Positions 1,324 to 60,909 of a stretch of 64,000 nt of DNA are shown one piece after another. Each line of letters opens with the position of its first letter. Position 1 is the first letter of the stretch. A program made the translations under genes and the position numbers. The stretch lies in assembly GCA_026387235.1 (NCBI GenBank), contig JAPLMD010000042.1:3185-67184 (forward strand), written 5' to 3'. The notes beneath the pieces were generated by a model that saw nothing but the letters and a program-made list of their open reading frames with translations, searched no databases and was not told the origin of the DNA. The stretch is from Candidatus Omnitrophota bacterium. Lineage in GTDB: Bacteria > Omnitrophota > Gorgyraeia > Gorgyraeales > Gorgyraeaceae.

Positions 1324-1392
1324 CCTCCAAATTTACGAAGTAAATTTGATCCCGAGTCCGCCCTTTTTATTGCTACTGTGCGGCGAGGGACC
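1324..1392 (-). repeat. Structured leader/intergenic repeat, copy A. AT hairpin AAATTTACGAAGTAAATTT plus GC hairpin GATCCCGAG..GCGGCGAGGGACC. It fills the FNOR-acsB gap.
   Basis: Shares motif and arrangement with copies at 12456, 23606, 37009, 37092 and 44668. It sits immediately 5' of the acsB SD and ATG on the coding (minus) strand. Confidence 0.7.
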
Positions 1393-8103: not shown

Positions 8104-9812
8104 TAAAATAGCCCTAACACCTTTCCGTCCTTATCAATATCCACTTTAGTCCCTGCGGGCACGGACGGTAAGCCCGGCATCGTGCGCATCTCGCCGCACA
8201 ATGGGTATAAAAATCCTGCGCCTGCTGAAATCCTTACATCTCTTATAGGCAAAGTAAAATCCCTGGGCCTCGCCTTAAGCTCAGGGTCGTGCGAAAGCGA
8301 TAAATGAGTCTTTGCCATACATATGGGTAATTTATCATAGCCCAATTTTGTATAGCAAGATATCTTTCTTTCAGCTTCCGGCGAATAACTTACATCTTTT
8401 GCGCCGTAAATCTTTTTTGCTATCAGCTCTATCTTTTCTTTAATCGGCATATCCAGAGGATATAGAAACTTGAAGTCTGATTTTTTCTCGCACATCTTTA
8501 TTACAGCTTTAGCTAAAGCTACGCCGCCTTCGCCGCCTTTTTCCCATACCTCGCTTAAAACAGCATCCTCTGCCCCTGCTTTTACAGCTATTTCTTCTAT
8601 TGCTGCAATTTCTCTATCCGTATCATATAAAAACCTATTTATCGCAACTACTACTGGCACGCCGAATAATTTTATATTCTCAATATGTTTTTCAAGGTTA
8701 CTAGCGCCTTTTTTAACAGCTTCTACATCTTCTCTCTTTAAAGCTTCTGCATCTATCTTCTTGCCCGGCGCTGCCTTAAACGCTCCTCCGTGCATCTTAA
8801 GGGCTCTGACACTGCATACTATCACCACAGCATCAGGTGGCTTAAGGCCCGGTATCCGGCATTTTATATCCATAAATTTTTCCGCGCCGCAGTCTGCGCC
8901 AAAACCGCTCTCAGTCACCACGTAATCTGATAGTTTTAATGCTATTATATCAGCCAGTATTGAATTGTTGCCGTGCGCGATATTTGCGAAAGGCCCGGCG
9001 TGCATGATGCACGGGGTGTTTTCCGTCGTCTGAACAAGGTTAGGCTTAATAGCGTCTTTTAAAAGGACTGTCATAGCGCCTGCGCATTTCAGGTCCTCCG
9101 CTGTGACTGGCAAGCCAGCATAAGTAAAAGCCGCTATAATTTTTCCTATGCGGCTCCTCAAATCAAAAAGATCTTTTGAAAGCGCGAGTATTGCCATCAC
9201 TTCACTTGCAACTGTTATATCAAAACCTGTATCTCTTGGAATTCCATTTTCCTCTCCGCCCAAGCCAGTTTTTATCTGCCGCAAAGCCCTGTCGCTTATA
9301 TCCACTACTCTGCGCGTGATAATAGTATCGGGATTTATATTCAGCTTATTGCCTTTGGCAATGCTATTATCAATGAATGCCGCCAGGAGATTATTTGCTG
9401 CGCCCACAGCGTGTATGTCGCCTGTAAAATGAAGGTTTATATCTTCCATTGGCAAAACCTGGGAATAACCACCTCCAGCAGCTCCGCCTTTTATTCCGAA
9501 TACAGGCCCCATCGAAGGCTGGCGCAATGTGGTAATTACCTTTTTCCCGAGCTTATGCAGTCCTAGACTCAAACCAATAGTGGTAACTGTTTTCCCTTCT
9601 CCCAAAGGCGTCGGCGTAATGGCTGTTACGTCTATATATTTTCCAAAAGGTTTATCTTTAAGGCGGCCAAGTATAGAAAGGGATATTTTGGCTTTATACC
9701 TTCCGTATAATTCAAGCTCATCCTCTTTTATACCCATCTCTTTTGCAATCTCAGTAATAGGCTTAAGTTCTGCAGCCTGGGCTATTTCTAGGTCACTTGG
9801 AATACTCTTCAT
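8103..9812 (-). CDS. fhs: Formate--tetrahydrofolate ligase.
   Basis: SDLEIAQAA..., TPTPLGEGKTVTTIGL and PSMGPVFGIKGGAAGGGYSQV are diagnostic. The start is called at MKSIPSD (ATG at 9812 with GGAGG 5 nt upstream) rather than the track's 9824. Confidence 0.92.
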   Translation of the reverse strand: MKSIPSDLEIAQAAELKPITEIAKEMGIKEDELELYGRYKAKISLSILGRLKDKPFGKYIDVTAITPTPLGEGKTVTTIGLSLGLHKLGKKVITTLRQPSMGPVFGIKGGAAGGGYSQVLPMEDINLHFTGDIHAVGAANNLLAAFIDNSIAKGNKLNINPDTIITRRVVDISDRALRQIKTGLGGEENGIPRDTGFDITVASEVMAILALSKDLFDLRSRIGKIIAAFTYAGLPVTAEDLKCAGAMTVLLKDAIKPNLVQTTENTPCIMHAGPFANIAHGNNSILADIIALKLSDYVVTESGFGADCGAEKFMDIKCRIPGLKPPDAVVIVCSVRALKMHGGAFKAAPGKKIDAEALKREDVEAVKKGASNLEKHIENIKLFGVPVVVAINRFLYDTDREIAAIEEIAVKAGAEDAVLSEVWEKGGEGGVALAKAVIKMCEKKSDFKFLYPLDMPIKEKIELIAKKIYGAKDVSYSPEAERKISCYTKLGYDKLPICMAKTHLSLSHDPELKARPRDFTLPIRDVRISAGAGFLYPLCGEMRTMPGLPSVPAGTKVDIDKDGKVLGLF

Positions 9813-9814
9813 TT

Positions 9815-10195
9815 TTACCTCCATCTACTATCCAGATCAAACGCATTCTTTATCAGCCTTACTTGCGGCCGGAGACTATCAACGCCCTCTATGCAAACCA
9901 CATCAAACCTGCAGCTTTTATCTTCCAGCTTAAATTTCTTTATATACGCTAGGGCTGCTTTTGAAATCTGCAGCTGTTTCTTTTTTAATATCGTCTCTTC
10001 AGGCAAACCGAACGCGGGCGAGTTTTTAGCCCTGACTTCCACAAAACAAGTACAGCCTTTATAATCCGCTATTATATCTATTTCTCCCAGCTTTGTCCTG
10101 TAATTTCTTCCTATTATTTTATAGCCTTCTCTTCGCAAATAAGAAACAGCCAGCTCCTCTCCGCTCTTTCCAGAACTAATCCTTGCAAATGTCAT
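9815..10195 (-). CDS. yraN: YraN/UPF0102 family endonuclease.
   Basis: MTFARISSGKSGEELAVSYLRREGYKIIGRNYRTKLGEIDIIA... is a typical YraN. The start is taken at MTF (ATG at 10195); the track ORF extends 16 codons upstream into a hairpin. Confidence 0.75.
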   Translation of the reverse strand: MTFARISSGKSGEELAVSYLRREGYKIIGRNYRTKLGEIDIIADYKGCTCFVEVRAKNSPAFGLPEETILKKKQLQISKAALAYIKKFKLEDKSCRFDVVCIEGVDSLRPQVRLIKNAFDLDSRWR

Positions 10196-10210
10196 TTTTT
10201 TAATGAGCAC

Positions 10211-10250
10211 TTGACTTATGGAGTGAATGAAATGAACGAGCATAAGTCAA
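10211..10250. repeat. Inverted repeat TTGACTTATG-N20-CATAAGTCAA in the rnhB-yraN gap. It is followed by GC motifs related to the leader-repeat family (TAATCCCGGGC ... GTTGCGAGGGAT; 10259-10300), a second inverted repeat GCGAGGGAT-N18-ATCCCTCGC (10292-10327), and CTCGGGAT (10355-10362).
   Basis: Perfect 10-bp arms. The neighbouring TAATCCCGGGCAACCC...GCGAGGGAT closely resembles TAATCCCGAGCAGCCC...GTCGCGAGGGGC of copy E. I read this as a degenerate seventh copy of the element. Confidence 0.4.
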
Positions 10251-10375
10251 TGTGCGAATTAATCCCGGGCAACCCTATTTTTCATCATGTTGCGAGGGAT
10301 AAAACTTTATATGATAATCCCTCGCTGCATATAATCAAGAATCAAGGCAGCTCGGGATAAGTTCGGACATATAGC

Positions 10376-11505: not shown

Positions 11506-12195
11506 TTAATGTTTTAATAAATCCGGCCTTTTCTTTTTAGTTGTTTTTACCGCCTCTTTCTTTCTCCATTCTTTTATTTTCTCATGATCCCCGGACAAAA
11601 GAACATCCGGAACTTTCATGCCGTTGTAATCAGCCGGCCTTGTATAATGCGGATACTCCAAAAGATCTTCGGAAAACGACTCATCCTTGCAGGAATTCTC
11701 ATCTCCAAGAGCTCCCGGCAAAAGCCTTACAACGCCGTCAATTATTACCATGGCCGGTAATTCTCCGCCGGTCAAAATAAAATCTCCTATCGATATCTCG
11801 TCATCCGCTAGGTGCCCAGCAACCCTTTCGTCTATGCCTTCATAATGACCGCACAATAGCACCACGTGTTCATATTTTGACAATTTTACAGCAAGCGCCT
11901 GATTAAATCTCCTGCCTTTAGGGCTCAGAAGCACTGTTCTCGTCTTGAGCCTGAGGTCTTTTGTCTTTCTTCTTATATAATTAACAGCTTCAAAAAACGG
12001 CTCGGCATTCATCACCATGCCCGGGCCTCCGCCAAAAGGCTTATCATCCACCTTTCTATGCTTGTCTTTTGAAAAGAGCCTCAAATCTATTACATTTATT
12101 TCAACAACGCCTTTTTCTTTTGCCCTTTTTATAATAGACTCTCCCATCACCGCATCAAACATCTTCGGGAATATTGTCAGAACATCTATACGCAT
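11506..12195 (-). CDS. trmD: tRNA (guanine37-N1)-methyltransferase.
   Basis: [12 protein letters not shown]......SI..RA...G.V......[20 protein letters not shown]; SPKG; [10 protein letters not shown]. 229 aa. Confidence 0.9.
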
Positions 12196-12202
12196 TTGAT
12201 AA

Positions 12203-12445
12203 TTAAATTACACCCTGTTTTTTGAAAAGGCTCTTTATTATCTCTGTCGGCGTAGCGCCTTTTGACAACCAGATCCTGGCCCTTTCTTTATCTATACTTA
12301 GAAAGGTTGGCTTCTTGGATGGATCATAATATCCTAACTCCTCTATTGTTTTTCCATCTCTTGCGCGCCTTATATCGCATACGACAATCCTGCGATGAGG
12401 TTTCTTTTTCGTCCCTAATCTCTTTAATCTGATTCTAACTGCCAT
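12203..12445 (-). CDS. rpsP: 30S ribosomal protein S16.
   Basis: MAVRIRLKRLGTKKKPHRRIVVCDIRRARDGKTIEELGYYDP. The ATG at 12445 follows GGAGGA; the track's extra MGGK is just the SD read as codons. Confidence 0.9.
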   Translation of the reverse strand: MAVRIRLKRLGTKKKPHRRIVVCDIRRARDGKTIEELGYYDPSKKPTFLSIDKERARIWLSKGATPTEIIKSLFKKQGVI

Positions 12446-12455
12446 CTTTCCTCCC

Positions 12456-12520
12456 AAATTTTGCGAAGCAAAATTTGATCCCGAGCCGCCATTATACCCG
12501 CGTATACGCGGCGAGGGACC
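12456..12520 (-). repeat. Structured leader repeat, copy B (AAATTTTGCGAAGCAAAATTT + GATCCCGAG..GCGGCGAGGGACC). It fills the murA-rpsP gap.
   Basis: Same architecture as copy A, with compensatory palindrome variants TGC/GCA. Confidence 0.7.
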
Positions 12521-23591: not shown

Positions 23592-23605
23592 ATTCATATC
23601 CTCCC

Positions 23606-23713
23606 AAATTTTGTGAAACAAAATTTAATCCCGCCTCGTGCCGAAACGAGTGCTAGCTAGGCACTCGGCGCCGAGGCAAGCTGCCCTGACTCTTACACCT
23701 AGCGACGAGGGGC
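23606..23713 (-). repeat. Structured leader repeat, copy C (long form: AAATTTTGTGAAACAAAATTT + AATCCCG..extended GC hairpins..GCGACGAGGGGC).
   Basis: The AT palindrome is identical to copies D1 and E. The GC-hairpin module carries an extra CCTCGTGCCGAAACGAGTGCTAGCTAGGCACTCGGCGCCGAGG insert. Confidence 0.65.
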
Positions 23714-28863: not shown

Positions 28864-29059
28864 CTTATATTTTCCCAATTTTTTATCTCTCCTCTCTCTT
28901 GAAAAATCGGTTTTATATGGTATAATTATTATAGCCGATAAGGGCAAACCCTGAGAAATCAGGGGGCGCAAAGCCTACGGGCCTAAGTTATTATGACAAG
29001 CCGTGACCAAAAGGTTAGTTAGGCAGTCAGTAATAATATGGCGGCCGGGTTGCCGAGCG

Positions 29060-36615: not shown

Positions 36616-36996
36616 CTAACTTACTATTTTATAGACTACGTCGTGTTCCCTAACCTTTGATTTTACCTTTAACCCTATCTCCATACCCTTTTCCGCATTT
36701 TGTATCGGCGCGTGGTCAAGCTGGATAGATTGCACCTTTTCCTTAAAATCAGACGTATGGCCTTTTATGACAATGTTATCTCCCACGGAAAGAGTGCTCT
36801 TCGTAAGTTTTACGACAGCTGCATCTACTTTTGGAAAATAATGGGTTATTATACCTGCTTCTTCGAGAGATGCGCCGCTGGGTATAGATGAAGCCTTTTT
36901 TAGTGCCTTTGCCAGGGGCTTCTTCTTGGCAACGGTTTTCTTCTTTGCCTTTTTTACAGGCTTTCTAATTACCTTCTTGGTTTTCTTTTTCTTCAT
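36616..36996 (-). CDS. Lysine-rich (histone H1-like tail) protein with a C-terminal small beta-barrel domain (translation-factor domain II-like). Hypothetical.
   Basis: The N-terminal 35 aa are ~50% Lys (MKKKKTKKVIRKPVKKAKKKTVAKKKPLAKALKK). The C-terminal ~85 aa follow the G..G..V..G..V pattern of EF-Tu domain-2-like barrels. Preceded by two tandem leader repeats. Confidence 0.4.
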   Translation of the reverse strand: MKKKKTKKVIRKPVKKAKKKTVAKKKPLAKALKKASSIPSGASLEEAGIITHYFPKVDAAVVKLTKSTLSVGDNIVIKGHTSDFKEKVQSIQLDHAPIQNAEKGMEIGLKVKSKVREHDVVYKIVS

Positions 36997-37008
36997 GCTT
37001 CACCTCCC

Positions 37009-37077
37009 AAAATTTTGTGAAACAAAATTTTGATCCCGAGTGACCCTAATTATTTTCCATCGGGTCGCGAGGGACCC
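37009..37077 (-). repeat. Structured leader repeat, copy D1.
   Basis: AAAATTTTGTGAAACAAAATTTT + GATCCCGAG..GGGTCGCGAGGGACCC, immediately 5' of the SD (GGAGG at 37003-37007) and ATG 36996. Confidence 0.7.
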
Positions 37078-37087
37078 TTGTCTTTCG

Positions 37088-38104
37088 CTACTTGTTTTGT
37101 GCAACAAAATTTGATCCCGAGGCCGCCTCGCCATCAAAGGTGGCGGGTGAGACGAGGGGCGATTTTTTATATAAAAACTCTCCGAACATTTTGCTGTGTT
37201 TTGTCCATGACGAATCAAGGTCATTGTATGTCTTTACAAAATGCCGGAATCCGTTTATCTTTGCGTCCAGGTTATCTATGTGATGCAGGATGATCGCCTC
37301 GAAGCACATGGGCCTTTTAGGCGAACCCCATTCATGTTCTCCGTGATGGCTGAGTATTATATGCAGAATAAGATTTTTCAATTCTTCCGGAAAATCCTGG
37401 ATCTTATCAATTGCCGCGCTTACGATATTTACGCCCAGGACTATGTGGCCTATCAGCCTGCCTCTATCCGTATAATAAAAACTTCTTTTATACGCAAGTT
37501 CTTCTATCTTCCCTATGTCGTGGAGAGCTGTGCCGCATAAAAGAAGGTCGATATTTATATTCTCGTATTTTAAAGATATCGTTCTTGCAAGTTGAACGCA
37601 CGCGAGCGTATGCTCAACAAGCCCGCCTATGTACGGATGATGAAAATCACTGGCAGCAGGCGCTGTTTTGAATTTTTCAGATATGCCTTTATCGGAGAAC
37701 ACGTTATGTATTAAGACCTTAAGATAGGGATTTTTGATTGATTCCATTTCAGATAAAAAATCTTTAAACATCTGATTTCTGTTTTTATCTGAAACCGGTA
37801 CATACAGCGAAAGATCTACGGATTCCTCGTTTATCTTTTCTATGGATTCCAGTTTTAATTGCGGATAGTTTTTGTAGAATTCTACCTTGCCCCTTATTTT
37901 TATAAAATCATCTACGATAAAAGAATCAAATAAAGACTTTAAGGCGTCCCATTTCCTGCAATCCACCATGCCTGTCCTGTCGGAAAGTTCGAGCGATATG
38001 TATGGATTACCGTTCTTGGTGATGTCGAAGGATTTTTCTCTTACAAGATAAACCGACTCTACTATCTCTCCTTCTTTCAAATCGCTTATAAACCTGTGAG
38101 CCAT
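37088..38104 (-). CDS. yhaM: 3'-5' exoribonuclease YhaM-like (OB-fold + HD domain).
   Basis: N-terminal OB fold (DLKEGEIVESVYLVREK...GNPYISLELSDRTG). HD domain (HPYIGGLVEHTL...ALHDIGK...HHGEHEWGSP). The C-terminal ~24 aa are encoded by repeat copy D2. Confidence 0.75.
   Translation of the reverse strand: MAHRFISDLKEGEIVESVYLVREKSFDITKNGNPYISLELSDRTGMVDCRKWDALKSLFDSFIVDDFIKIRGKVEFYKNYPQLKLESIEKINEESVDLSLYVPVSDKNRNQMFKDFLSEMESIKNPYLKVLIHNVFSDKGISEKFKTAPAASDFHHPYIGGLVEHTLACVQLARTISLKYENINIDLLLCGTALHDIGKIEELAYKRSFYYTDRGRLIGHIVLGVNIVSAAIDKIQDFPEELKNLILHIILSHHGEHEWGSPKRPMCFEAIILHHIDNLDAKINGFRHFVKTYNDLDSSWTKHSKMFGEFLYKKSPLVSPATFDGEAASGSNFVAQNK
37092..37161 (-). repeat. Structured leader repeat, copy D2 (tandem to D1). 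It overlaps the last ~24 codons and the stop of yhaM.
   Basis: TTGTTTTGTGCAACAAAATTT + GATCCCGAG..GACGAGGGGCG. The yhaM reading frame runs through it (…SPLVSPATFDGEAASGSNFVAQNK*). Confidence 0.65.
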
Positions 38105-38831: not shown

Positions 38832-38839
38832 AAATCCTC

Positions 38840-39625
38840 CTATTCTATCCCTTTATTCATGTAATCGCTAAAATCAACTTCGCCTGCAAGTTCCTGCTTG
38901 ACCATGCGTATGCGGTCTGCGACATATGGATGAGAGCGGTAACTGGTATATGGCCTTATGGGCTCAGTTTTATCCGCTTCCTGAAGCTTTTTAAGAAGGC
39001 TCACGACTGCCCACGGGTCATAACCTGCTTCTTTTAAGTATTTTATTGCCAGTTTATCAGCCAGCGCCTCGTCTTCTCTTGAATAAGACATGATCAACTG
39101 GCCGAATGCGGCGTCAATACGGCCTGCGTCCGGCCTCCCTGCTCCCGTAACAGCCATTAATATCTGGAGTATATTATAACCTACTCCTCCCTGGAGCCTC
39201 TTTATTGAATGCTTCGCTACCACGTGCGCTATTTCATGGGCAATGACTGCGGCAAGCTCATCGTCTTTGGAAACCTTGTCCACAAGGCCTTTGAAGACAA
39301 ACACGTATCCTCCCGGCAAAGCAAACGCATTCACGTCATCCTTATCTATAACCCTGAACGTATAGCTCACCTCTTTTCTGCCGCTGATAGATGCGATCCT
39401 TTGGCCGACCTCATTGACGCGCTCTGTCATCAGCGGATCAGGATCCAGTTTTATCTCTTTGCTTTTTTCAATGCTCTCGGCAATACTTTTCCCCATATTC
39501 ACTTCTTTCTGGGTATCTACAAAAATAATGTCTTCTTTGCCGGTAGCGGTATTATATTCCTGCGTAGCGCAGCCTGACACGGCGCTCATTATAAATAATA
39601 TAAAAATAATGGCTACGTTCTTCAT
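38840..39625 (-). CDS. M48-family zinc metalloprotease, lipoprotein.
   Basis: Lipobox (AVSGC). HEIAHV zinc-binding HExxH, and a downstream E (EDEALAD) consistent with the M48/BepA-like family. Confidence 0.8.
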   Translation of the reverse strand: MKNVAIIFILFIMSAVSGCATQEYNTATGKEDIIFVDTQKEVNMGKSIAESIEKSKEIKLDPDPLMTERVNEVGQRIASISGRKEVSYTFRVIDKDDVNAFALPGGYVFVFKGLVDKVSKDDELAAVIAHEIAHVVAKHSIKRLQGGVGYNILQILMAVTGAGRPDAGRIDAAFGQLIMSYSREDEALADKLAIKYLKEAGYDPWAVVSLLKKLQEADKTEPIRPYTSYRSHPYVADRIRMVKQELAGEVDFSDYMNKGIE

Positions 39626-40118: not shown

Positions 40119-40316
40119 AAATTTCGGTAATCCAGCCACCTTAATCCCGCGCTCGCAGAATCTTAGGCCTGTGACTTTGCGCCCCGCTCTTTCGAGCGGT
40201 TTGCCTTTGTCGTAATACTATTCAGTTGTCTCTAGTTATAAGTATGCCTCATTTTTTGGAAAAAACAAGGGCTGGCGCGAAGCGAACGCAGTGAGCTTCG
40301 CGCTAAAACATATTTA

Positions 40317-41609: not shown

Positions 41610-41657
41610 GGCTTATATTATACATAATTATAACTTAATGTAAACATCTTTTGTCCA

Positions 41658-41711
41658 CCCTCTGTCCACCTGCCAGGTGAGCCATCTGGCTCACCTGGCA
41701 GGTGGACAGAG
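41658..41711. repeat. REP-type palindrome (CCTCTGTCCACCTGCCAGGTGAGCCA..TGGCTCACCTGGCAGGTGGACAGAGG), the 3'-flanking copy of the RAYT.
   Basis: ~26-bp arms; near-identical copies at 42370 and 45614. Confidence 0.8.
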
Positions 41712-41718
41712 GCTTACG

Positions 41719-42351
41719 TTATTCTAGTATCATATCCTTTATTTTTGCCAATTCTCTTTGATAAGAAATTCTGTCTTCTACAAATTTTTTATACTCCTCT
41801 GGCTTTATATCTAATACATTGTCATATTCACAAATGCCCTCTTTATTACCGGAAATATATTCCCGATAAGAGGACCATTTCCAGTCTTCCGGGTTATTAA
41901 CTATATACGCTGTAGCAGGATTTAAATGAATGTATCTTGTCAAATGGAGCAACTGCGCATCGCTTTCTACCAGCACTTTTTTAAAACTACTCTCCCATAA
42001 TGGCCCTTTGCGATTATGCTTTATATTAAAATATCGCGAATAACTATTAAGCACGTTGCTCATAAAAACTGAAATTCCTTTGTCCTTTAATTGCTTAAGC
42101 ACTAAATGTATATGGGTCGGCATAATGCAATAACAAATAATCTGCACAAGTCTTTTAACGTCAAGTTGTTTAACCTGCATATTCCTTTCTTTGAACCTTG
42201 AAAACCGGACAAAAGGCCTTTCGATTCTATAATATTCAATGACTTCGCGCATCCTTGAATATTCAAAATCATTATTAAATATTACATATTCTGCGATACT
42301 TTTACTATAAACATGATAGATTTCGTCTGTAACTATGCGCTGACTATCCAT
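41719..42351 (-). CDS. tnpA: IS200/IS605-family Y1 (HuH) transposase of the REP-associated type (RAYT/TnpA-REP).
   Basis: HuH motif MPTHIHLV and catalytic Tyr region (TRYIHLNP). 210 aa from MDSQRIV (ATG 42351, SD AGGAGGGG). Flanked on both sides by the same long palindrome. The track ORF's N-terminal extension is just the palindrome translated. Confidence 0.8.
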   Translation of the reverse strand: MDSQRIVTDEIYHVYSKSIAEYVIFNNDFEYSRMREVIEYYRIERPFVRFSRFKERNMQVKQLDVKRLVQIICYCIMPTHIHLVLKQLKDKGISVFMSNVLNSYSRYFNIKHNRKGPLWESSFKKVLVESDAQLLHLTRYIHLNPATAYIVNNPEDWKWSSYREYISGNKEGICEYDNVLDIKPEEYKKFVEDRISYQRELAKIKDMILE

Positions 42352-42369
42352 TTTACCCCTCCTATAGCT

Positions 42370-42415
42370 TATACCTTTGGTCCACCTGCCAGGTGAGCCA
42401 GCTGGCTCACCTGGC
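42370..42415. repeat. REP-type palindrome (perfect 46-bp palindrome GGTCCACCTGCCAGGTGAGCCAGCTGGCTCACCTGGCAGGTGGACC), 5'-flanking the RAYT.
   Basis: Perfect dyad symmetry; same sequence family as 41658 and 45614. Confidence 0.8.
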
Positions 42416-42593
42416 AGGTGGACCAGGGTTCTCATTATATAAGACACATTTGGAGGGGATTTTCTTTCAAAAAAATTTAGATTTTTTCAGCAGACTAGAA
42501 GATATGTAAAAGGCGGTGAGTTTGTTTGCAAATAAAAATCCCCTGGAGGATTACTCCCCCAGGGGATTTAAACTGCTGAACTAATGTTTTAGG

Positions 42594-44190: not shown

Positions 44191-44655
44191 TTACTTGGTT
44201 TCCGTTTTCTGCGCTTTTATAGGCCTGGACCTAGGAGAAAGAGATATTATAACAGTGCTCTTTCCGCCCTGCGGTTGTACTGTAACTATACAGCTTTCAT
44301 CCGAATTCTCGTAGTTTAAAACCTTTCTATCGTATTCTATGATATTCACCAGGTCCCAATTAAATGAAGCCATCTGCTCCTTATAAAACGCCACTACCTG
44401 GTCTGCTGTCTGGCCGCCGTAATACTTTAATAAGGCTACTCTCGATTTATCATTCTGGAACGCAAAAGACTCTTTGTCTAAACTTTTAAAACCCGCGGGA
44501 ACAGGTATATCTTCAAATTTAAGAATAGGGGCCACTGAAAGAGTTACTTTATTTTTTTCTGCATTGCCCGATGATTCGTTTTGAGGAAATGTAGCGCAGC
44601 CGGCCAATAAAACCAGAGACAAAACACAAAGAATAAGAAACTTAAATATATACAT
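44191..44655 (-). CDS. Lipoprotein, hypothetical.
   Basis: Lipobox LLAGC after a hydrophobic signal peptide. 154 aa. Preceded by leader repeat copy E. Confidence 0.45.
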   Translation of the reverse strand: MYIFKFLILCVLSLVLLAGCATFPQNESSGNAEKNKVTLSVAPILKFEDIPVPAGFKSLDKESFAFQNDKSRVALLKYYGGQTADQVVAFYKEQMASFNWDLVNIIEYDRKVLNYENSDESCIVTVQPQGGKSTVIISLSPRSRPIKAQKTETK

Positions 44656-44667
44656 ATATCCTCCTTA

Positions 44668-44728
44668 AATTTTGTGAAACAAAATTTAATCCCGAGCAGC
44701 CCTTATTCTTCACTGAGTCGCGAGGGGC
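44668..44728 (-). repeat. Structured leader repeat, copy E (AAATTTTGTGAAACAAAATTT + AATCCCGAG..GTCGCGAGGGGC).
   Basis: Abuts the SD (GGAGG at 44660-44664) and ATG 44655 of the lipoprotein gene. It fills most of the PHP-lipoprotein intergenic gap. Confidence 0.7.
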
Positions 44729-44765: not shown

Positions 44766-45413
44766 TCAAGTAAGTCGTGCTACTAATTCTTCCGAATTTT
44801 TAAAAACCTGCGCAATTTCCTTTTTATCAAGTCCTGCGCCAAAAAGAACCTCTTCCGCAAAATCCTTTGTAATCAGATTTTCAGGCGCGTGGGAATCTGT
44901 ACTTATAACAAGTTTCGCTCCCGCGAGTCTCGCCATCTTCGCAACGTGACCGTTACTAAGCGAATGGCCTTTACGAGTCGTGATTTCAAGATAGATATTT
45001 CTACTTGCCGCGAGCTTCGCGTCTTCCAGCGTTATAAGCCCCGGATGAGCCAGGATGCTTATGTCCGCAAGAAGCGCTTCCTTATTTGTGCCTTTAATAA
45101 CAGGCTCGACTATTGTTTCGCCGTGGCCGAGAATCAGCTTTATGCCTTTTGAACGGACAAATTTTGCAGTGCTTTTTATCAGCTCAATAGGCATATGCGT
45201 AATCTCAACTCCGGGAATCGCTTTTATCTTCCAGTTTTTATTTATGTCATTACACGCGTTTATGATCCTGGGTATGACAAAGTCTATGTTGGAAGAATCC
45301 ACGTGGTCGGTCATGCCTATAACTTTATAGCCTTTTTCCTGCGCCCGCCTAGCTAATTCAGTGGGCAATAACTCTCCATCGCTTAATAATGTGTGGGTAT
45401 GCAGGTCGATCAT
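44766..45413 (-). CDS. PHP-domain metal-dependent phosphoesterase.
   Basis: MIDLHTHTLLSDGEL.P.EL..RA.E.GY.V...TDH; further His/Asp motif positions. 215 aa. Confidence 0.75.
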   Translation of the reverse strand: MIDLHTHTLLSDGELLPTELARRAQEKGYKVIGMTDHVDSSNIDFVIPRIINACNDINKNWKIKAIPGVEITHMPIELIKSTAKFVRSKGIKLILGHGETIVEPVIKGTNKEALLADISILAHPGLITLEDAKLAASRNIYLEITTRKGHSLSNGHVAKMARLAGAKLVISTDSHAPENLITKDFAEEVLFGAGLDKKEIAQVFKNSEELVARLT

Positions 45414-45526
45414 GTTTCTCTCCTTAGCTAAGCATTGTGGTTCGACGCGCTCGCTTCGCTCGCTTGCTCACCACCATCCTGAGCAAGCGAAAATTTTATA
45501 AAATAAAATTTTCGCGCGTCGAAGGA
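45414..45526 (-). repeat. Highly structured GC/AT palindromic element between tRNA-Arg and the PHP gene. Outer stem TTCGACGCGC/GCGCGTCGAA encloses hairpins GAAAATTTTAT-ttt-ATAAAATTTTC and GCTTGCTCA-N9-TGAGCAAGC, plus a GAGCGAAGCGAGC tract.
   Basis: Inverted repeats read directly. It shares TCGCTTCGCTCGCT with the rplS-leader palindrome (11436-11501). Confidence 0.5.
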
Positions 45527-45603
45527 TGGCGTCCCAGGGGCGATTCGAACGCCCGACCCCAGGTTTAGGAAACCTGTGCTCTATCCATCTGAGCTACTGG
45601 GAC
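45527..45603 (-). tRNA. tRNA-Arg (anticodon CCU), with encoded CCA.
   Basis: Manual cloverleaf: acceptor GTCCCAG/CTGGGAC (7 bp), D-arm GCTC-AGATGGATA-GAGC, anticodon arm CAGGT-TTCCTAA-ACCTG (CCU at 34-36), variable loop GGGTC, T-arm GGGCG-TTCGAAT-CGCCC, discriminator G, CCA. Confidence 0.85.
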
Positions 45604-45613
45604 CTTTGACCTT

Positions 45614-45661
45614 GGTCCACCTGCCAGGTGAGCCAGATGATGGCTCACCTGGCAGGTGGAC
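45614..45661. repeat. REP-type palindrome (third copy of the RAYT-associated family), immediately upstream of tRNA-Arg.
   Basis: GGTCCACCTGCCAGGTGAGCCA-gatga-TGGCTCACCTGGCAGGTGGAC. Confidence 0.8.
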
Positions 45662-45670
45662 AGGGATTTA

Positions 45671-57864: not shown

Positions 57865-59231
57865 AACTCCTCCTTTTTTATCCTTATTCCAAGTTCCTTT
57901 AGCTGTTTTTCATCTACCGGCGACGGCGCTTCTGTCAACGGACAGACCGCCTTTTGCGTTTTTGGAAAAGCTATTACATCCCTTATCGTATCCGAGCCTG
58001 CCATCAACGCTATGAGCCTGTCCAGGCCGAGCGCAATGCCTCCGTGCGGAGGCGCGCCATATTCAAATGCCTCCAGTAAAAATCCAAAACGCTCTTTCGC
58101 CTCTTCCATGCTCAAACCTATGCGTTTAAATATCTTTTCCTGTAAATCTCTCTTATGAATCCTTATGCTGCCTGAGGCTATCTCAACGCCGTTTACGACA
58201 AGGTCGTAAGCCCTAGACCTGACCTTGTCCGGATCTTTTTCTATCAAATCTATATCTTCCACCAAAGGATACGTAAACGGGTGATGTTCCATGTCCCATT
58301 TTTTTTCTTCTTCGTTGTATCTGAATAAAGGAAAACTCGTAACCCACAAAAATTGGAATCCGGCCTTATTTTCTCTTATATCAGGCTTATCTGAATTGTA
58401 TTTTTCCATCGCCTCTTTATAAGACATCCTGGGGAACGGGATCTTCAGTTCCAGCCCTATCGTCTCTTTAAATACATAAAAAAGCAGCTTTTCTATTATC
58501 GCGAATATCTCTTCTTCGTCCGTAAAAGAAAGCTCCATGTCCAGCTGTGTAAATTCAGGCTGCCTGTCCGCCCTCAGGTCCTCATCCCTGAAACACTTGG
58601 CTATCTGAAAATACCTCTCAAGGCCCGACACCATCAATAACTGCTTGAACAGTTGAGGAGACTGCGGAAGCGCAAAAAACCTTCCGTGATTCAACCTGGA
58701 CGGAACCAGAAAATCCCTGGCGCCTTCAGGAGTGGATTTTGTAAGTATCGGCGTTTCCACCTCTATAAAATCCTTTTTATCCAGAAAATCCCTCATTGAT
58801 TTTATTATCTTATGCCGCAATATGAGTTTTTTCTGGACCAAAGGCCTTCTTAAATCAATATACCTGTATTTCAACCTTACCTCTTCCGATATCTCGTTCG
58901 CACTATCCAGTTCAAAAGGAGGCGTGAGAGACGGGTTAAGTATCTCTAGTTCTTCAACGCCTAGCTCAACCTCGCCCGTAGGTATATCCGGATTTTCTGT
59001 GCCTTTCGGCCTTTGCTGCACTACGCCTTTCACGGCTATGACGTATTCGCTGCGAAGCTCTTCAGCGGCTTTCATTTTAAAAAATACTATCTGGGTCATG
59101 CCGTACCTGTCGCGCACATCCACAAAAATCAATTTTCCATGGTCTCGTCTTTTGTTCACCCAGCCTGTCAGAATCGCTTTCTCGCCTATATTCTTAACTG
59201 TCAAATCCCCGCATGTATGCGTCCGCTTCAT
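57861..59231 (-). CDS. aspS: Aspartate--tRNA ligase, compact bacterial-type core lacking the GAD insertion domain.
   Basis: N-terminal OB fold (RTHTCGDL....G....L.GWV...RDHG.LIF.D.RDR.G..Q.VF). Motif 2 ([44 protein letters not shown]). Motif 3 (GAPPHGG.ALGLDRL). The sequence passes from ..SDKPDIR straight to ...[10 protein letters not shown] with no ~130-aa GAD domain, giving 456 aa. Confidence 0.9.
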
Positions 59232-60497: not shown

Positions 60498-60782
60498 TTA
60501 TTTTACCTTTGCCTTCATGATGAGGCCGGGTTTGAATATGGCTACTTTTTTAGGCTGAACAGGGACTTGTGCGCCTGTCCTGGGATTGCGGCCCATGCGG
60601 CCTTTCCTTGACTTTGTCTTAAACACGCCGAAATTCCTGAGCTCTATTTTTTCGCCTCTGGCCAGCGCGTCAACGATAACATCAAACGTCATCTGTACGA
60701 CTTTTTTAACATCTATCTGCTTAATATTGGTGTCTGTCGCAATCTTCATTACAATGTCTTTTTTGGTCATACTCTTCCCCAT
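60498..60782 (-). CDS. hup: HU-family nucleoid-associated DNA-binding protein.
   Basis: MTKKDIV..IA.......K.V...........AL..GEKIELRNFGVF.....K.R.GRNPRTG..V.V....V..FKPG. The start is either MGKS (60782) or MTKK (60770). Confidence 0.88.
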   Translation of the reverse strand: MGKSMTKKDIVMKIATDTNIKQIDVKKVVQMTFDVIVDALARGEKIELRNFGVFKTKSRKGRMGRNPRTGAQVPVQPKKVAIFKPGLIMKAKVK

Positions 60783-60909
60783 AATAAGCCTCCTTGGTTT
60801 TTTTATATCTATCGTAAATATAATGGGTAGTGTAACAGGTTAAGCTGCTATTGTCAAACGAATTCTGGATAGTTATTCTTTCCGGATGGCAGGATCAACA
60901 GTATTAAAA

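Follow-up and report, generated by a model that had tools for sequence, protein, structure and literature searches.

A double-hairpin repeat at Shine–Dalgarno and tRNA junctions in Omnitrophota, probably a lineage-specific non-autonomous mobile element

Copies of the repeat in the window

We analysed a family of short repeats in a 64,000-nt stretch of the Candidatus Omnitrophota contig JAPLMD010000042.1 (positions 3,185 to 67,184 of the forward strand), which as a whole is called the window here. Each repeat joins two modules, a GC-rich imperfect hairpin and an AT-rich palindrome, over about 62–110 bp (typically about 70 bp). A copy reads (G/A)G(T/C)CCCTCG, a loop, CTCGGGAT(C/T), then C-AAATTTTGYTTCRCAAAATTT-G, followed by the Shine–Dalgarno (SD) sequence GGAGG or GGGAGG, 4–8 nt and an ATG; the ends of the element are (G/A)GTCCC... 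and ...AAATTTG. From the comparison of occupied and unoccupied sites in related genomes we consider it likely that the family is a lineage-specific, non-autonomous mobile repeat, which inserts in one orientation at junctions between an A-run and GG and so ends up in the leader or spacer of many genes and beside many tRNAs.

Copies in the window were called with a covariance model (R1, filters off), by pattern matching and by direct reading of the minus strand. Five of them are full, one, in tandem, is degenerate, and two consist of the GC hairpin only; nothing further was convincing. The initial annotation, made from the sequence alone, had listed six full minus-strand copies, each with a perfect AT inverted repeat. 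All six are present at the places it gave, but the one at 37086-37163 is degenerate in its AT arm, leaving five. The copy at 1328-1392 (minus strand; AT hairpin CAAATTTACTTCGTAAATTTG; R1 61.0 bits, E=7.5e-13) lies between the gene of a pyridine-nucleotide oxidoreductase (Pfam; stop at 1395-1397) and acsB (ATG at 1319), and the comparison locus L172 carries a copy with a different apical subtype at the orthologous site. At 12455-12520 (minus strand; 87.6 bits, both hairpins present in the minimum-energy fold) the element occupies the whole murA–rpsP spacer, with the SD GGGAGG at 12455-12450 and the rpsP ATG at 12445; that the gene upstream of rpsP is murA corrects the initial annotation. In the copy at 23605-23713 (minus strand; 45.8 bits; folded) the GC hairpin is enlarged by an extra internal GC-rich hairpin. 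It stands upstream of an open reading frame (ORF) for a membrane protein of about 63 aa, with a weak promoter-like site 40 nt upstream of the copy. The copy at 44667-44728 (minus strand; 70.7 bits) is placed between a PHP-domain gene (Pfam; ending at 44766) and a lipoprotein-like ORF of 154 aa (ATG at 44655), and AA spaces its AT hairpin from GGAGG. In correction of the initial annotation, the copy at 23605-23713 does not lie in a short gap between co-directional genes. Since nearly all genes of the window lie on the minus strand, a common orientation of its copies proves nothing by itself.

The fifth full copy, at 37008-37077 (minus strand; 73.0 bits), is the downstream half of a tandem dimer and adjoins the SD of a Lys-rich ORF of 126 aa (ATG at 36996), the orthologous site in L162 holding a single element. 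The upstream half is the degenerate copy at 37086-37163 (minus strand; 21.4 bits), which keeps an intact GC hairpin, has a truncated 3' AT arm and no SD, and is followed by the linker CAAGTAGCGAAAGACAAG. This linker (37081-37100 in the window) replaces the AT 3' arm of the first copy and leads into the second, full copy; it is also found in L023, L138, L180, L221 and L166, so that the dimer seems to propagate as one unit. The ORF at 37088-38104 (minus strand; HD domain and OB fold, Pfam) has no stop before the element and runs through its GC hairpin, which adds about 25 codons, to a stop at 37088-37090 inside the degenerate copy. Its orthologue in L162 runs through the entire element, with a TGA overlapping the ATG of the next gene. 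It seems that this ORF owes its present end to the inserted element, which took the place of the original C-terminus or stop codon.

The two copies of the GC hairpin only lie back to back as an inverted pair, like the pairs around a GIY-YIG gene in other contigs. One, at 10241-10303 (minus strand, sense; 26.0 bits), has neither AT hairpin nor SD and lies just upstream of the UPF0102 gene (9815-10243; Pfam), an arrangement that is orthologous in L180 and L188. The other, at 10314-10371 (plus strand, opposite orientation; 28.8 bits), follows the rnhB stop directly and has an orthologous copy in L009. Where the initial annotation had seen a seventh, degenerate copy, repeats are indeed present, but they are these two inverted GC hairpins without an AT hairpin. 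As a separate observation, the tRNA-Arg gene (45527-45603, minus strand) is followed at 45483-45519 by an AT-rich perfect hairpin with GC clamps, GCGAAAATTTTATTTTATAAAATTTTCGC, which resembles the AT module; no GC hairpin of the family adjoins it and it reaches only 17.5 bits with R1.

Architecture and covariation

The pattern CCCTCG-N10-40-CTCGGGAT has six matches in the window against 0.00 expected, the 21-nt palindrome (up to three mismatches) eight against 0.00, and CTCGGGATYAAATTT (up to two mismatches) six against 0.57. At its base the GC hairpin is conserved, with the stem P1 (GGUCCC/GGGAUC) followed by an invariant 2x2 UC/UC internal loop, while the inner stem and the tip vary and fall into subfamilies. 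The AT module is a palindrome of 9–10 bp, C-AAATTTTGY-TTC-RCAAAATTT-G.

Pairing was quantified on 94 aligned copies, with 500 shuffles and with controls in which the pairing partner was slid by one to three columns. Standard pairs make up 93.9% of the pair cells, compared with at most 57% in the slid controls, and 143 cells show double changes against 48.5 in the shuffles, none of the 500 reaching 143. Both stems covary, the inner GC stem strongly (one pair is CG in 58 copies, GC in 21, AU in 5 and UA in 2). The variable pair of the AT stem is U-A in 49, C-G in 35, C.A in 9 and U.G in one. In the 94 copies the CCC/GGG pairs of P1 change only to U.G; more divergent copies have compensated changes (GGUCCU/AGGAUC, GAUCUC/GAGAUC) and keep the UC/UC loop. 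Copies outside the search pattern add compensated AT-stem variants, namely AAATTTTAC/GTAAAATTT, AATTTTTGC/GCAAAAATT, GAATTTTGT/ACAAAATTC, CGAATTTAC/GTAAATTCG and AAATTTGCC/GGCAAATTT. The paired, symmetry-preserving substitutions that had been read from the window copies are therefore real, part of the covariation being the exchange of whole apical subtypes and not independent point changes.

Folded as RNA, the element forms its two hairpins in the minimum-energy structure and leaves the SD unpaired. Over the aligned copies we counted about 30 stem mismatches of the G.U type against about 29 of the C.A type, and for one copy folded on both strands the antisense fold was the stronger relative to shuffles (z = -4.6, compared with -2.5 for sense). 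With G.U and C.A mismatches balanced and the antisense fold stronger, sense RNA is not marked as the selected molecule, and the G.U : A.C ratio was accordingly set aside as uninformative for strand assignment. We also considered the 5' arm of the GC hairpin as an anti-SD masking GGGAGG and rejected it, since inspection allows no more than 4 bp and the SD is free in the minimum-energy fold.

The element belongs to no Rfam family, as the initial annotation had supposed. In the window, Rfam 15 at the gathering threshold yields only two c-di-GMP-I-GGC riboswitches and one tRNA, and nothing at the repeat, and permissive scans of two copies return matches at chance level (E above 1). In the full-text literature we found no paper with the 21-mer palindrome, as DNA or RNA, or with the 15-mer CTCGGGATCAAATTT; the 9-mer GGTCCCTCG occurs there only by chance in unrelated papers. 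Nothing in the literature linked Omnitrophota to such repeats or GIY-YIG proteins to REP (repetitive extragenic palindromic) sequences.

Filled and empty orthologous sites

From an all-against-all comparison of flanks, eight clean pairs of filled and empty orthologous sites were obtained at seven filled loci, with flanks that are mostly 70–95% identical at the nucleotide level. An empty site reads ...A-run|GGAGGnnnnATG, and in the filled site (G/A)GTCCC...CAAATTTTGYTTCRCAAAATTTG stands between the A-run and the same GGAGGnnnnATG. The sites include trmD–rplS, rpsF, groES and hup, where the element is dispensable in close relatives. The window itself contributes empty sites on the minus strand. 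One, ...ATAAAAAAGGAGGagttATG at 57866-57879, corresponds to a full element between A-run and GGAGG in L140 (flanks 88% and 82% identical in nucleotides), and another, ...GAATAGGAGGatttATG at 38833-38848, is occupied in L153 (flanks 84% and 85% identical). Upstream of the HU gene (60498-60782; Pfam), the site at 60785-60811 holds no element in the window or in L023, while L185 has one. These pairs identify the GGAGG SD as pre-existing host sequence and not as part of the repeat, to which only the extra G belongs that closes the 10-bp palindrome arm ahead of the host GGAGG. The proposal that the element is fused to the SD is thereby overturned.

The distribution among relatives is similarly patchy. 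Six loci that are syntenic with the window (L240-L245; S16 59–84% identical) hold, over 108 kb and with filters off, a single divergent copy, which rules out an element conserved across the phylum. Their murA–rpsP spacers are unrelated sequences of 10–107 nt that lack the element. Apical subtypes (up to three differences) recur at unrelated genes, with 20 copies at 18 loci for one subtype, 7 at 6 and 6 at 6 for two more, and others besides. At the murA–rpsP site the subtype in the window differs from that in L215 and L180, although the flanking proteins are 91–93% identical, and such a swap between close orthologous sites indicates replacement or conversion and not slow compensatory drift. The suggestion of a mobile element that targets the region near the SD is therefore supported by the filled and empty sites, by the near-absence in syntenic relatives and by the spread and swapping of subtypes. 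Under the initial annotation, random orientation together with a lack of covariation would have overturned the regulatory reading in favour of an ordinary REP/MITE. Neither was seen: the copies are strictly oriented and covarying, and nevertheless the evidence points to mobility.

Copies in other contigs

Metagenome contigs were scanned with the exact 27-mer GGGATYAAATTTTGNTTCNCAAAATTT, chosen to contain no SD, which was present on at least 120 contigs and had no match among viral contigs. Copy statistics outside the window refer to 119 distinct copies among the matches listed. The 5' arm GGTCCCTCG (up to two mismatches) lies 19–83 nt upstream in 112 of them, and in 103 an ORF of at least 40 codons starts 10–14 nt past the AT hairpin, so that the fixed orientation relative to genes, now measured with an SD-free pattern, holds outside the window as well. 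Immediately 3' of the AT hairpin, 64 copies read GGGAGG, 14 GAGAGG and 6 TGGAGG. Intercistronic copies number 66 among the 109 whose upstream flank is 100 nt or longer, and in these the stop of the co-directional upstream ORF falls mostly at -2 to +13 nt from the foot of the hairpin. The eight bases upstream of the element are 60–75% A, and no GTAG is present. A scan of genome contigs with the 15-mer CTCGGGATYAAATTT gave mostly chance matches; the true composite copies were all in Candidatus Omnitrophota metagenome-assembled genomes and in one labelled Planctomycetales. The S16 protein of the window is 93–95% identical to Omnitrophota proteins, including that of Candidatus Omnitrophica CG1_02_40_15; a look-up of its exact sequence gave no recorded entry.

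By Pfam, the downstream genes include those for S6, S16, S19, L19, L20, GroES, HU, SSB, ACP and PII, and by reading of the N-terminus only also EF-Tu, DnaK, GAPDH, ClpP, thioredoxin, S20, S21, L31, GlnA, Amt, TatA, GreA and AcsB. This apparent bias towards highly expressed genes, judged from the uncorrected gene list, could reflect selection for a useful leader, a preference for strong A-run|GGAGG sites or the easier accessibility of heavily transcribed DNA.

Copies also flank tRNA genes. Among 27 tRNAs in the loci, seven are preceded by a sense copy whose AT hairpin ends 0–2 nt before G1, and eight are followed by an inverted copy whose AT palindrome starts at C75-A76 of the encoded CCA; one spacer between tRNA-Ile and tRNA-Ala consists of the AT hairpin alone. 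In every context the AT end is joined to GG, be it that of GGAGG, of tRNA G1G2 or of the complement of CCA. This constant AT|GG junction fits an asymmetric insertion site and sits poorly with a function in translation alone; translation is irrelevant beside a tRNA, and these copies therefore argue against a translation cassette as the reason for the family's existence. An RNA-processing role at tRNA ends is possible.

Transcription signals were assessed on the 43 non-intercistronic copies among the matches listed, with 327 control positions. A TTGACA-17-TAnnnT promoter lies upstream of 11 of the 43, while only 2 of the 327 controls score as high. The -10 box ends 9–46 nt before the hairpin, with a single one of the 11 beyond 28 nt. 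Such consensus sigma-70 promoters imply that the element is transcribed as a leader, with a start shortly before the hairpin. A sigma-70 promoter within the element was rejected, since no -35/-10 placement keeps the SD in the transcript and promoters were found upstream instead. The A-rich upstream flank had also prompted the idea of an antisense or bidirectional terminator; scanning two copies for consensus promoters and terminators gave no site on either strand, and only one of the eight inverted tRNA copies has a T-run. Downstream of the hairpin the sense strand reads AUCAAAUUUU in place of a U-run.

A candidate nuclease

Two loci, L239 (236-1000) and L161 (9100-9741), contain Pfam GIY-YIG (PF01541) ORFs with E=1.5e-20 and 7.3e-16, each adjoining a tRNA. 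An inverted GC hairpin of the family stands upstream of the ORF, a sense GC hairpin overlaps its 3' end and a duplicated tRNA fragment lies beyond. Among loci chosen for homologues of this gene, L246 (1037-1610), L247 (1032-1600), L248 (800-1800), L249 (5760-6530) and L250 (5600-6360), the layout is the same in five of five, the gene in L249 being truncated. The proteins have about 80–104 aa (typically about 90) and are encoded at tRNA-Val, tRNA-Ser and tRNA-Met/Val loci, where the hairpins sometimes form tandem arrays of at least four and direct repeats of a 17–22-nt tRNA fragment occur, a picture that would suit repeated integration of a mini-cassette into the tRNA gene. The truncated gene in L249 has six hairpins within about 600 nt; the same assembly is sampled by L240, which has none in 20 kb. 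Proteins of the Omnitrophota clade share a C-terminal tail, FG.G.RFPS, that is not seen in more distant homologues; its coding sequence is the hairpin arm GGTTTCCCTCGG. For ORFs of about 82 aa Pfam finds the GIY-YIG domain only and no separate DNA-binding domain. On this gene arrangement, the nuclease of about 90 aa is the best candidate for the protein that moves the element.

The window does encode a protein like RAYT (REP-associated tyrosine transposase), a Y1 (IS200-type) gene at 41719-42447 (minus strand; Pfam Y1_Tnp 31.1 bits, cutoff 23) with readable HIH and RYIHLNP motifs. It is flanked by a near-perfect palindrome of about 50–66 nt, GTCCACCTGCCAGGTGAGCCA..TGGCTCACCTGGCAGGTGGAC, at 41657-41722 and 42373-42438, and a third palindrome of this type lies at 45612-45670, just upstream of tRNA-Arg. 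None was found in the 250 loci compared, the three copies in the window being the only ones. With an unrelated palindrome at its flanks, the gene forms a classical REP/RAYT pair of this genome that is separate from the double-hairpin family, and the window RAYT was rejected as the mobiliser of the CCCTCG...CTCGGG hairpin.

Discussion

In its fixed orientation the element joins, by its AT end, a GG that in this compact, AT-rich genome is mostly the start of a host GGAGG SD following an A-run, and otherwise tRNA G1 or the complement of CCA. It is thus not built onto the SD by design but comes to lie beside it, where it makes up all of the spacer between two genes or the greater part of a 5' untranslated region, and is transcribed with the gene. 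From the retained copies we infer that they are at least harmless. With two local hairpins and a single-stranded SD in the predicted fold, they may add stability to the mRNA or insulate the ribosome-binding site, and it is plausible that the host would gain from such a leader. The conserved hairpin base with its UC/UC loop probably holds the recognition features for a protein that moves or copies the element.

The most serious alternative is a dedicated cis-acting RNA cassette, a standard module of leaders and intercistronic spacers that selection maintains, with its spread among loci being secondary. Its GC hairpin would be a 3' or 5' stabiliser and its AT hairpin a nuclease site, a platform for S1 and the ribosome or an insulator of the ribosome-binding site. 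Together the hairpins would make highly expressed genes more active or bring them into concert, and would mark where tRNAs are processed. Much of the evidence is in keeping with such a cassette: the strict sense orientation in register with the SD, covariation in both stems with a UC/UC loop that is invariant even where P1 covaries, transcription from upstream consensus promoters, an SD that is unpaired in the minimum-energy fold, the many ribosomal-protein, chaperone and other genes with expected high expression downstream, and an AT hairpin that sits exactly at tRNA ends in the manner of a processing signal. Orientation alone, however, is explicable by an asymmetric insertion site and is no proof of regulatory function. 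The element is absent at the essential rplS, rpsF, groES and hup in close relatives and nearly absent in syntenic sister lineages, and the SD pre-exists in the empty sites. Neither the mismatch tally (about 30 G.U-type, about 29 C.A-type) nor the strand comparison of one copy (antisense z = -4.6, sense -2.5) favours sense RNA, the swapping of subtypes at orthologous sites looks like the dynamics of a repeat and not like conservation, no trans-acting factor was identified, and copies also flank tRNAs. We therefore regard the cassette as unlikely, and give the same low weight to the specific roles assigned to its two hairpins and to its proposed effects on expression and tRNA processing.

Two further readings fare worse on the same data. 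A classical REP/BIME (bacterial interspersed mosaic element) repeat moved by RAYT, the Y1 HUH transposase acting on single-stranded hairpin DNA, would account for extragenic imperfect palindromes that occur in many copies, share a conserved mismatch, cluster in tandem and inverted arrays and leave no target-site duplication, and a RAYT-like protein is encoded in the window at 41719-42447. Yet that gene is flanked by the GTCCACCTGCCAGGTGAGCCA...TGGCTCACCTGGCAGGTGGAC palindrome and not by the CCCTCG...CTCGGG hairpin, a GTAG-type 5' tetranucleotide is absent, and the double-hairpin family flanks the GIY-YIG gene instead. The copies also lie 5' of genes in one orientation, whereas REPs are typically 3' and in either orientation, which together make this reading very improbable. 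Least credible of all, to the point of being close to negligible, is a transcription signal, whether an intrinsic terminator or attenuator, an antisense terminator or a promoter or operator in the AT palindrome. The A-rich upstream bases would be a U-rich tail on the opposite strand, inverted copies do follow tRNA genes, and the palindrome could bind a dimeric protein. Against this stand the lack of a terminator-like site on either strand at two copies, the AUCAAAUUUU tail in place of a U-run, the T-run in only one of eight inverted tRNA copies and the lack of any -10/-35 placement inside the element that leaves the SD in the transcript. Given the strong promoters upstream, an efficient terminator in the element would silence the gene, and a sequence-specific operator would not tolerate palindrome arms that drift with compensating changes. 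The repeat lacks features that define REP/RAYT, or are defining of a DDE-type MITE (miniature inverted-repeat transposable element), of a terminator and of a promoter.

Insertion of a mobile repeat in one orientation remains our preferred explanation, and a number of points weigh against it. Sampling by the exact 27-mer biases the set towards close relatives, whose orthologous proteins are 72–96% identical. The core is near-identical in all copies and the downstream genes show an apparent excess of highly expressed ones (again judged from the uncorrected list), and selection for a host role would account for both as well. The eight filled and empty pairs show no consistent target-site duplication and the element no terminal inverted repeats. 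Gain as opposed to precise loss at these sites is inferred from outgroups only, and no autonomous copy, with a gene between GC end and AT end, was found in about 1 Mb of loci. As to the nuclease, the GIY-YIG loci represent only about three independent positions (tRNA-Val by thrS, tRNA-Ser, and tRNA-Met/Val by rpoD), the GC hairpins around the gene could belong to the tRNA flanks instead, and no GIY-YIG gene is present in the 64-kb window.

Among known systems, REP/BIME and REPIN sequences with their RAYT come closest, as they share with the repeat the short, high-copy, extragenic imperfect palindromes, the conserved mismatch, the subfamilies, the tandem and inverted clusters, the lack of a target-site duplication, a small nuclease-type gene between inverted repeats and co-transcription with mRNA. 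They differ in that the flanked gene here is a GIY-YIG protein of about 90 aa and not an HUH Y1 transposase, that there is no GTAG-type tetranucleotide, and that a second, AT-rich hairpin is present in copies with one orientation 5' of genes, in register with the SD and at tRNA termini. Correia/NEMIS elements of Neisseria and ERIC/IRU elements of Yersinia and enterobacteria are likewise non-autonomous, located near genes, co-transcribed as hairpins, variably present between strains and possibly active in processing or stability. Terminal inverted repeats, target duplication (TA for Correia) and insertion in both orientations characterise those elements, whereas here the first two were seen neither at the element ends nor in the eight filled and empty pairs, in disagreement with a DDE-type MITE, and copies have a single orientation with an exact GGAGG junction. 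IS200/IS605-derived PATEs (palindrome-associated transposable elements) also have a hairpin at each end, no duplication and oriented insertion by a short asymmetric target. Here the hairpins are at the very ends, which leaves no room for IS608-type guides, both orientations occur around a single tRNA, and no Y1 transposase with matching ends was found. The AT end is always at GG (CC| on the other strand), and the other flank varies, being an A-run before the SD and not A-rich after tRNAs. As RNA, the element would resemble the ompA leader and RiboJ-type insulators: it would form a structured leader, with one strong hairpin towards the 5' end and another right ahead of an exposed SD, and would depend little on upstream context. 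Those are single-locus or engineered parts and not a dispersed mobile family, and the likeness is one of functional analogy only.

For the nuclease, a precedent is phage T4 SegB, reported as a free-standing GIY-YIG homing endonuclease gene in a tRNA cluster (PMC2330249). A small GIY-YIG gene among tRNA genes, in the manner of a selfish cassette, is common to both. The Omnitrophota protein differs in that it has little beyond the catalytic domain, is chromosomal, is bounded by hairpins and duplicated tRNA fragments and is tied to a dispersed repeat family. By analogy with REP/RAYT, we tentatively raise the possibility, itself rather doubtful, that the CCCUCG...CUCGGG hairpin and the GIY-YIG nuclease make up a system of repeat and nuclease that has not been described before. 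The enzyme would recognise this hairpin, with its UC/UC internal loop (GA/GA on the other strand), as structured DNA and would drive copying, insertion and conversion between copies. In the lineage of the window, a derivative that gained the AT palindrome would have colonised A-run|GGAGG junctions and tRNA ends and would have been partly co-opted as a standard leader of highly expressed genes. If true, this link would place a second enzyme class alongside the REP/RAYT paradigm of domesticated hairpin repeats, and would suggest a role for widespread, uncharacterised mini GIY-YIG proteins adjoining tRNA genes.

For motif discovery, the repeat is a cautionary case, as a mobile repeat with an asymmetric insertion site can mimic an oriented, covarying, SD-adjacent regulatory motif, which matters for scans for riboswitch-like RNAs in uncultured genomes. 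In annotation, copies should be masked as repeats, and upstream ORFs that read through them, such as 37088-38104, need care. The family also offers a natural experiment, in which a structured leader of about 70 nt stands before dozens of unrelated genes and is missing at those genes in close relatives, so that its effect on mRNA stability, processing and translation could be read from metatranscriptomes or reporter assays.

Further observations

The AT-hairpin loop itself serves as an insertion target for another element. A second MITE, about 55 nt long, lies inside this loop in L135 (4768-4896), L171 (6351-6469), L195 (2394-2500) and L166 (about 8480-8515); its terminal inverted repeats, CCCCGCCCTTTTGG, measure 14 bp, and 5 bp (TTTCA or CTTCG) were duplicated on insertion. 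In other lineages the same spacers hold unrelated hairpins, for example GGGGGCGGTCGCGACCGCCCCC before tuf (L126, about 11858-11903) and a hairpin of the GTGTAAAG type before rpsP (L244, 9897-10000, murA–rpsP; L242, 9894-10000). Spacers adjoining an SD thus appear to be general landing sites for various hairpin repeats in Omnitrophota.

Positions 1-20555 of the window form a long syntenic block with L240-L245, where S16 is only 59–84% identical. The gene order is polA-coaE-rho-rpmE-prfA-prmC-murA-rpsP-trmD-rplS-rnhB-UPF0102-fhs-FTCD_C-folD-metF-CODH/ACS, which joins translation genes directly to the Wood–Ljungdahl cluster. The two c-di-GMP-I-GGC aptamers (RF03167) of the window lie at 40122-40214 (minus strand) and 28934-29058 (plus strand) and score 69.1 and 61.6 bits, respectively, against a gathering threshold of 59.

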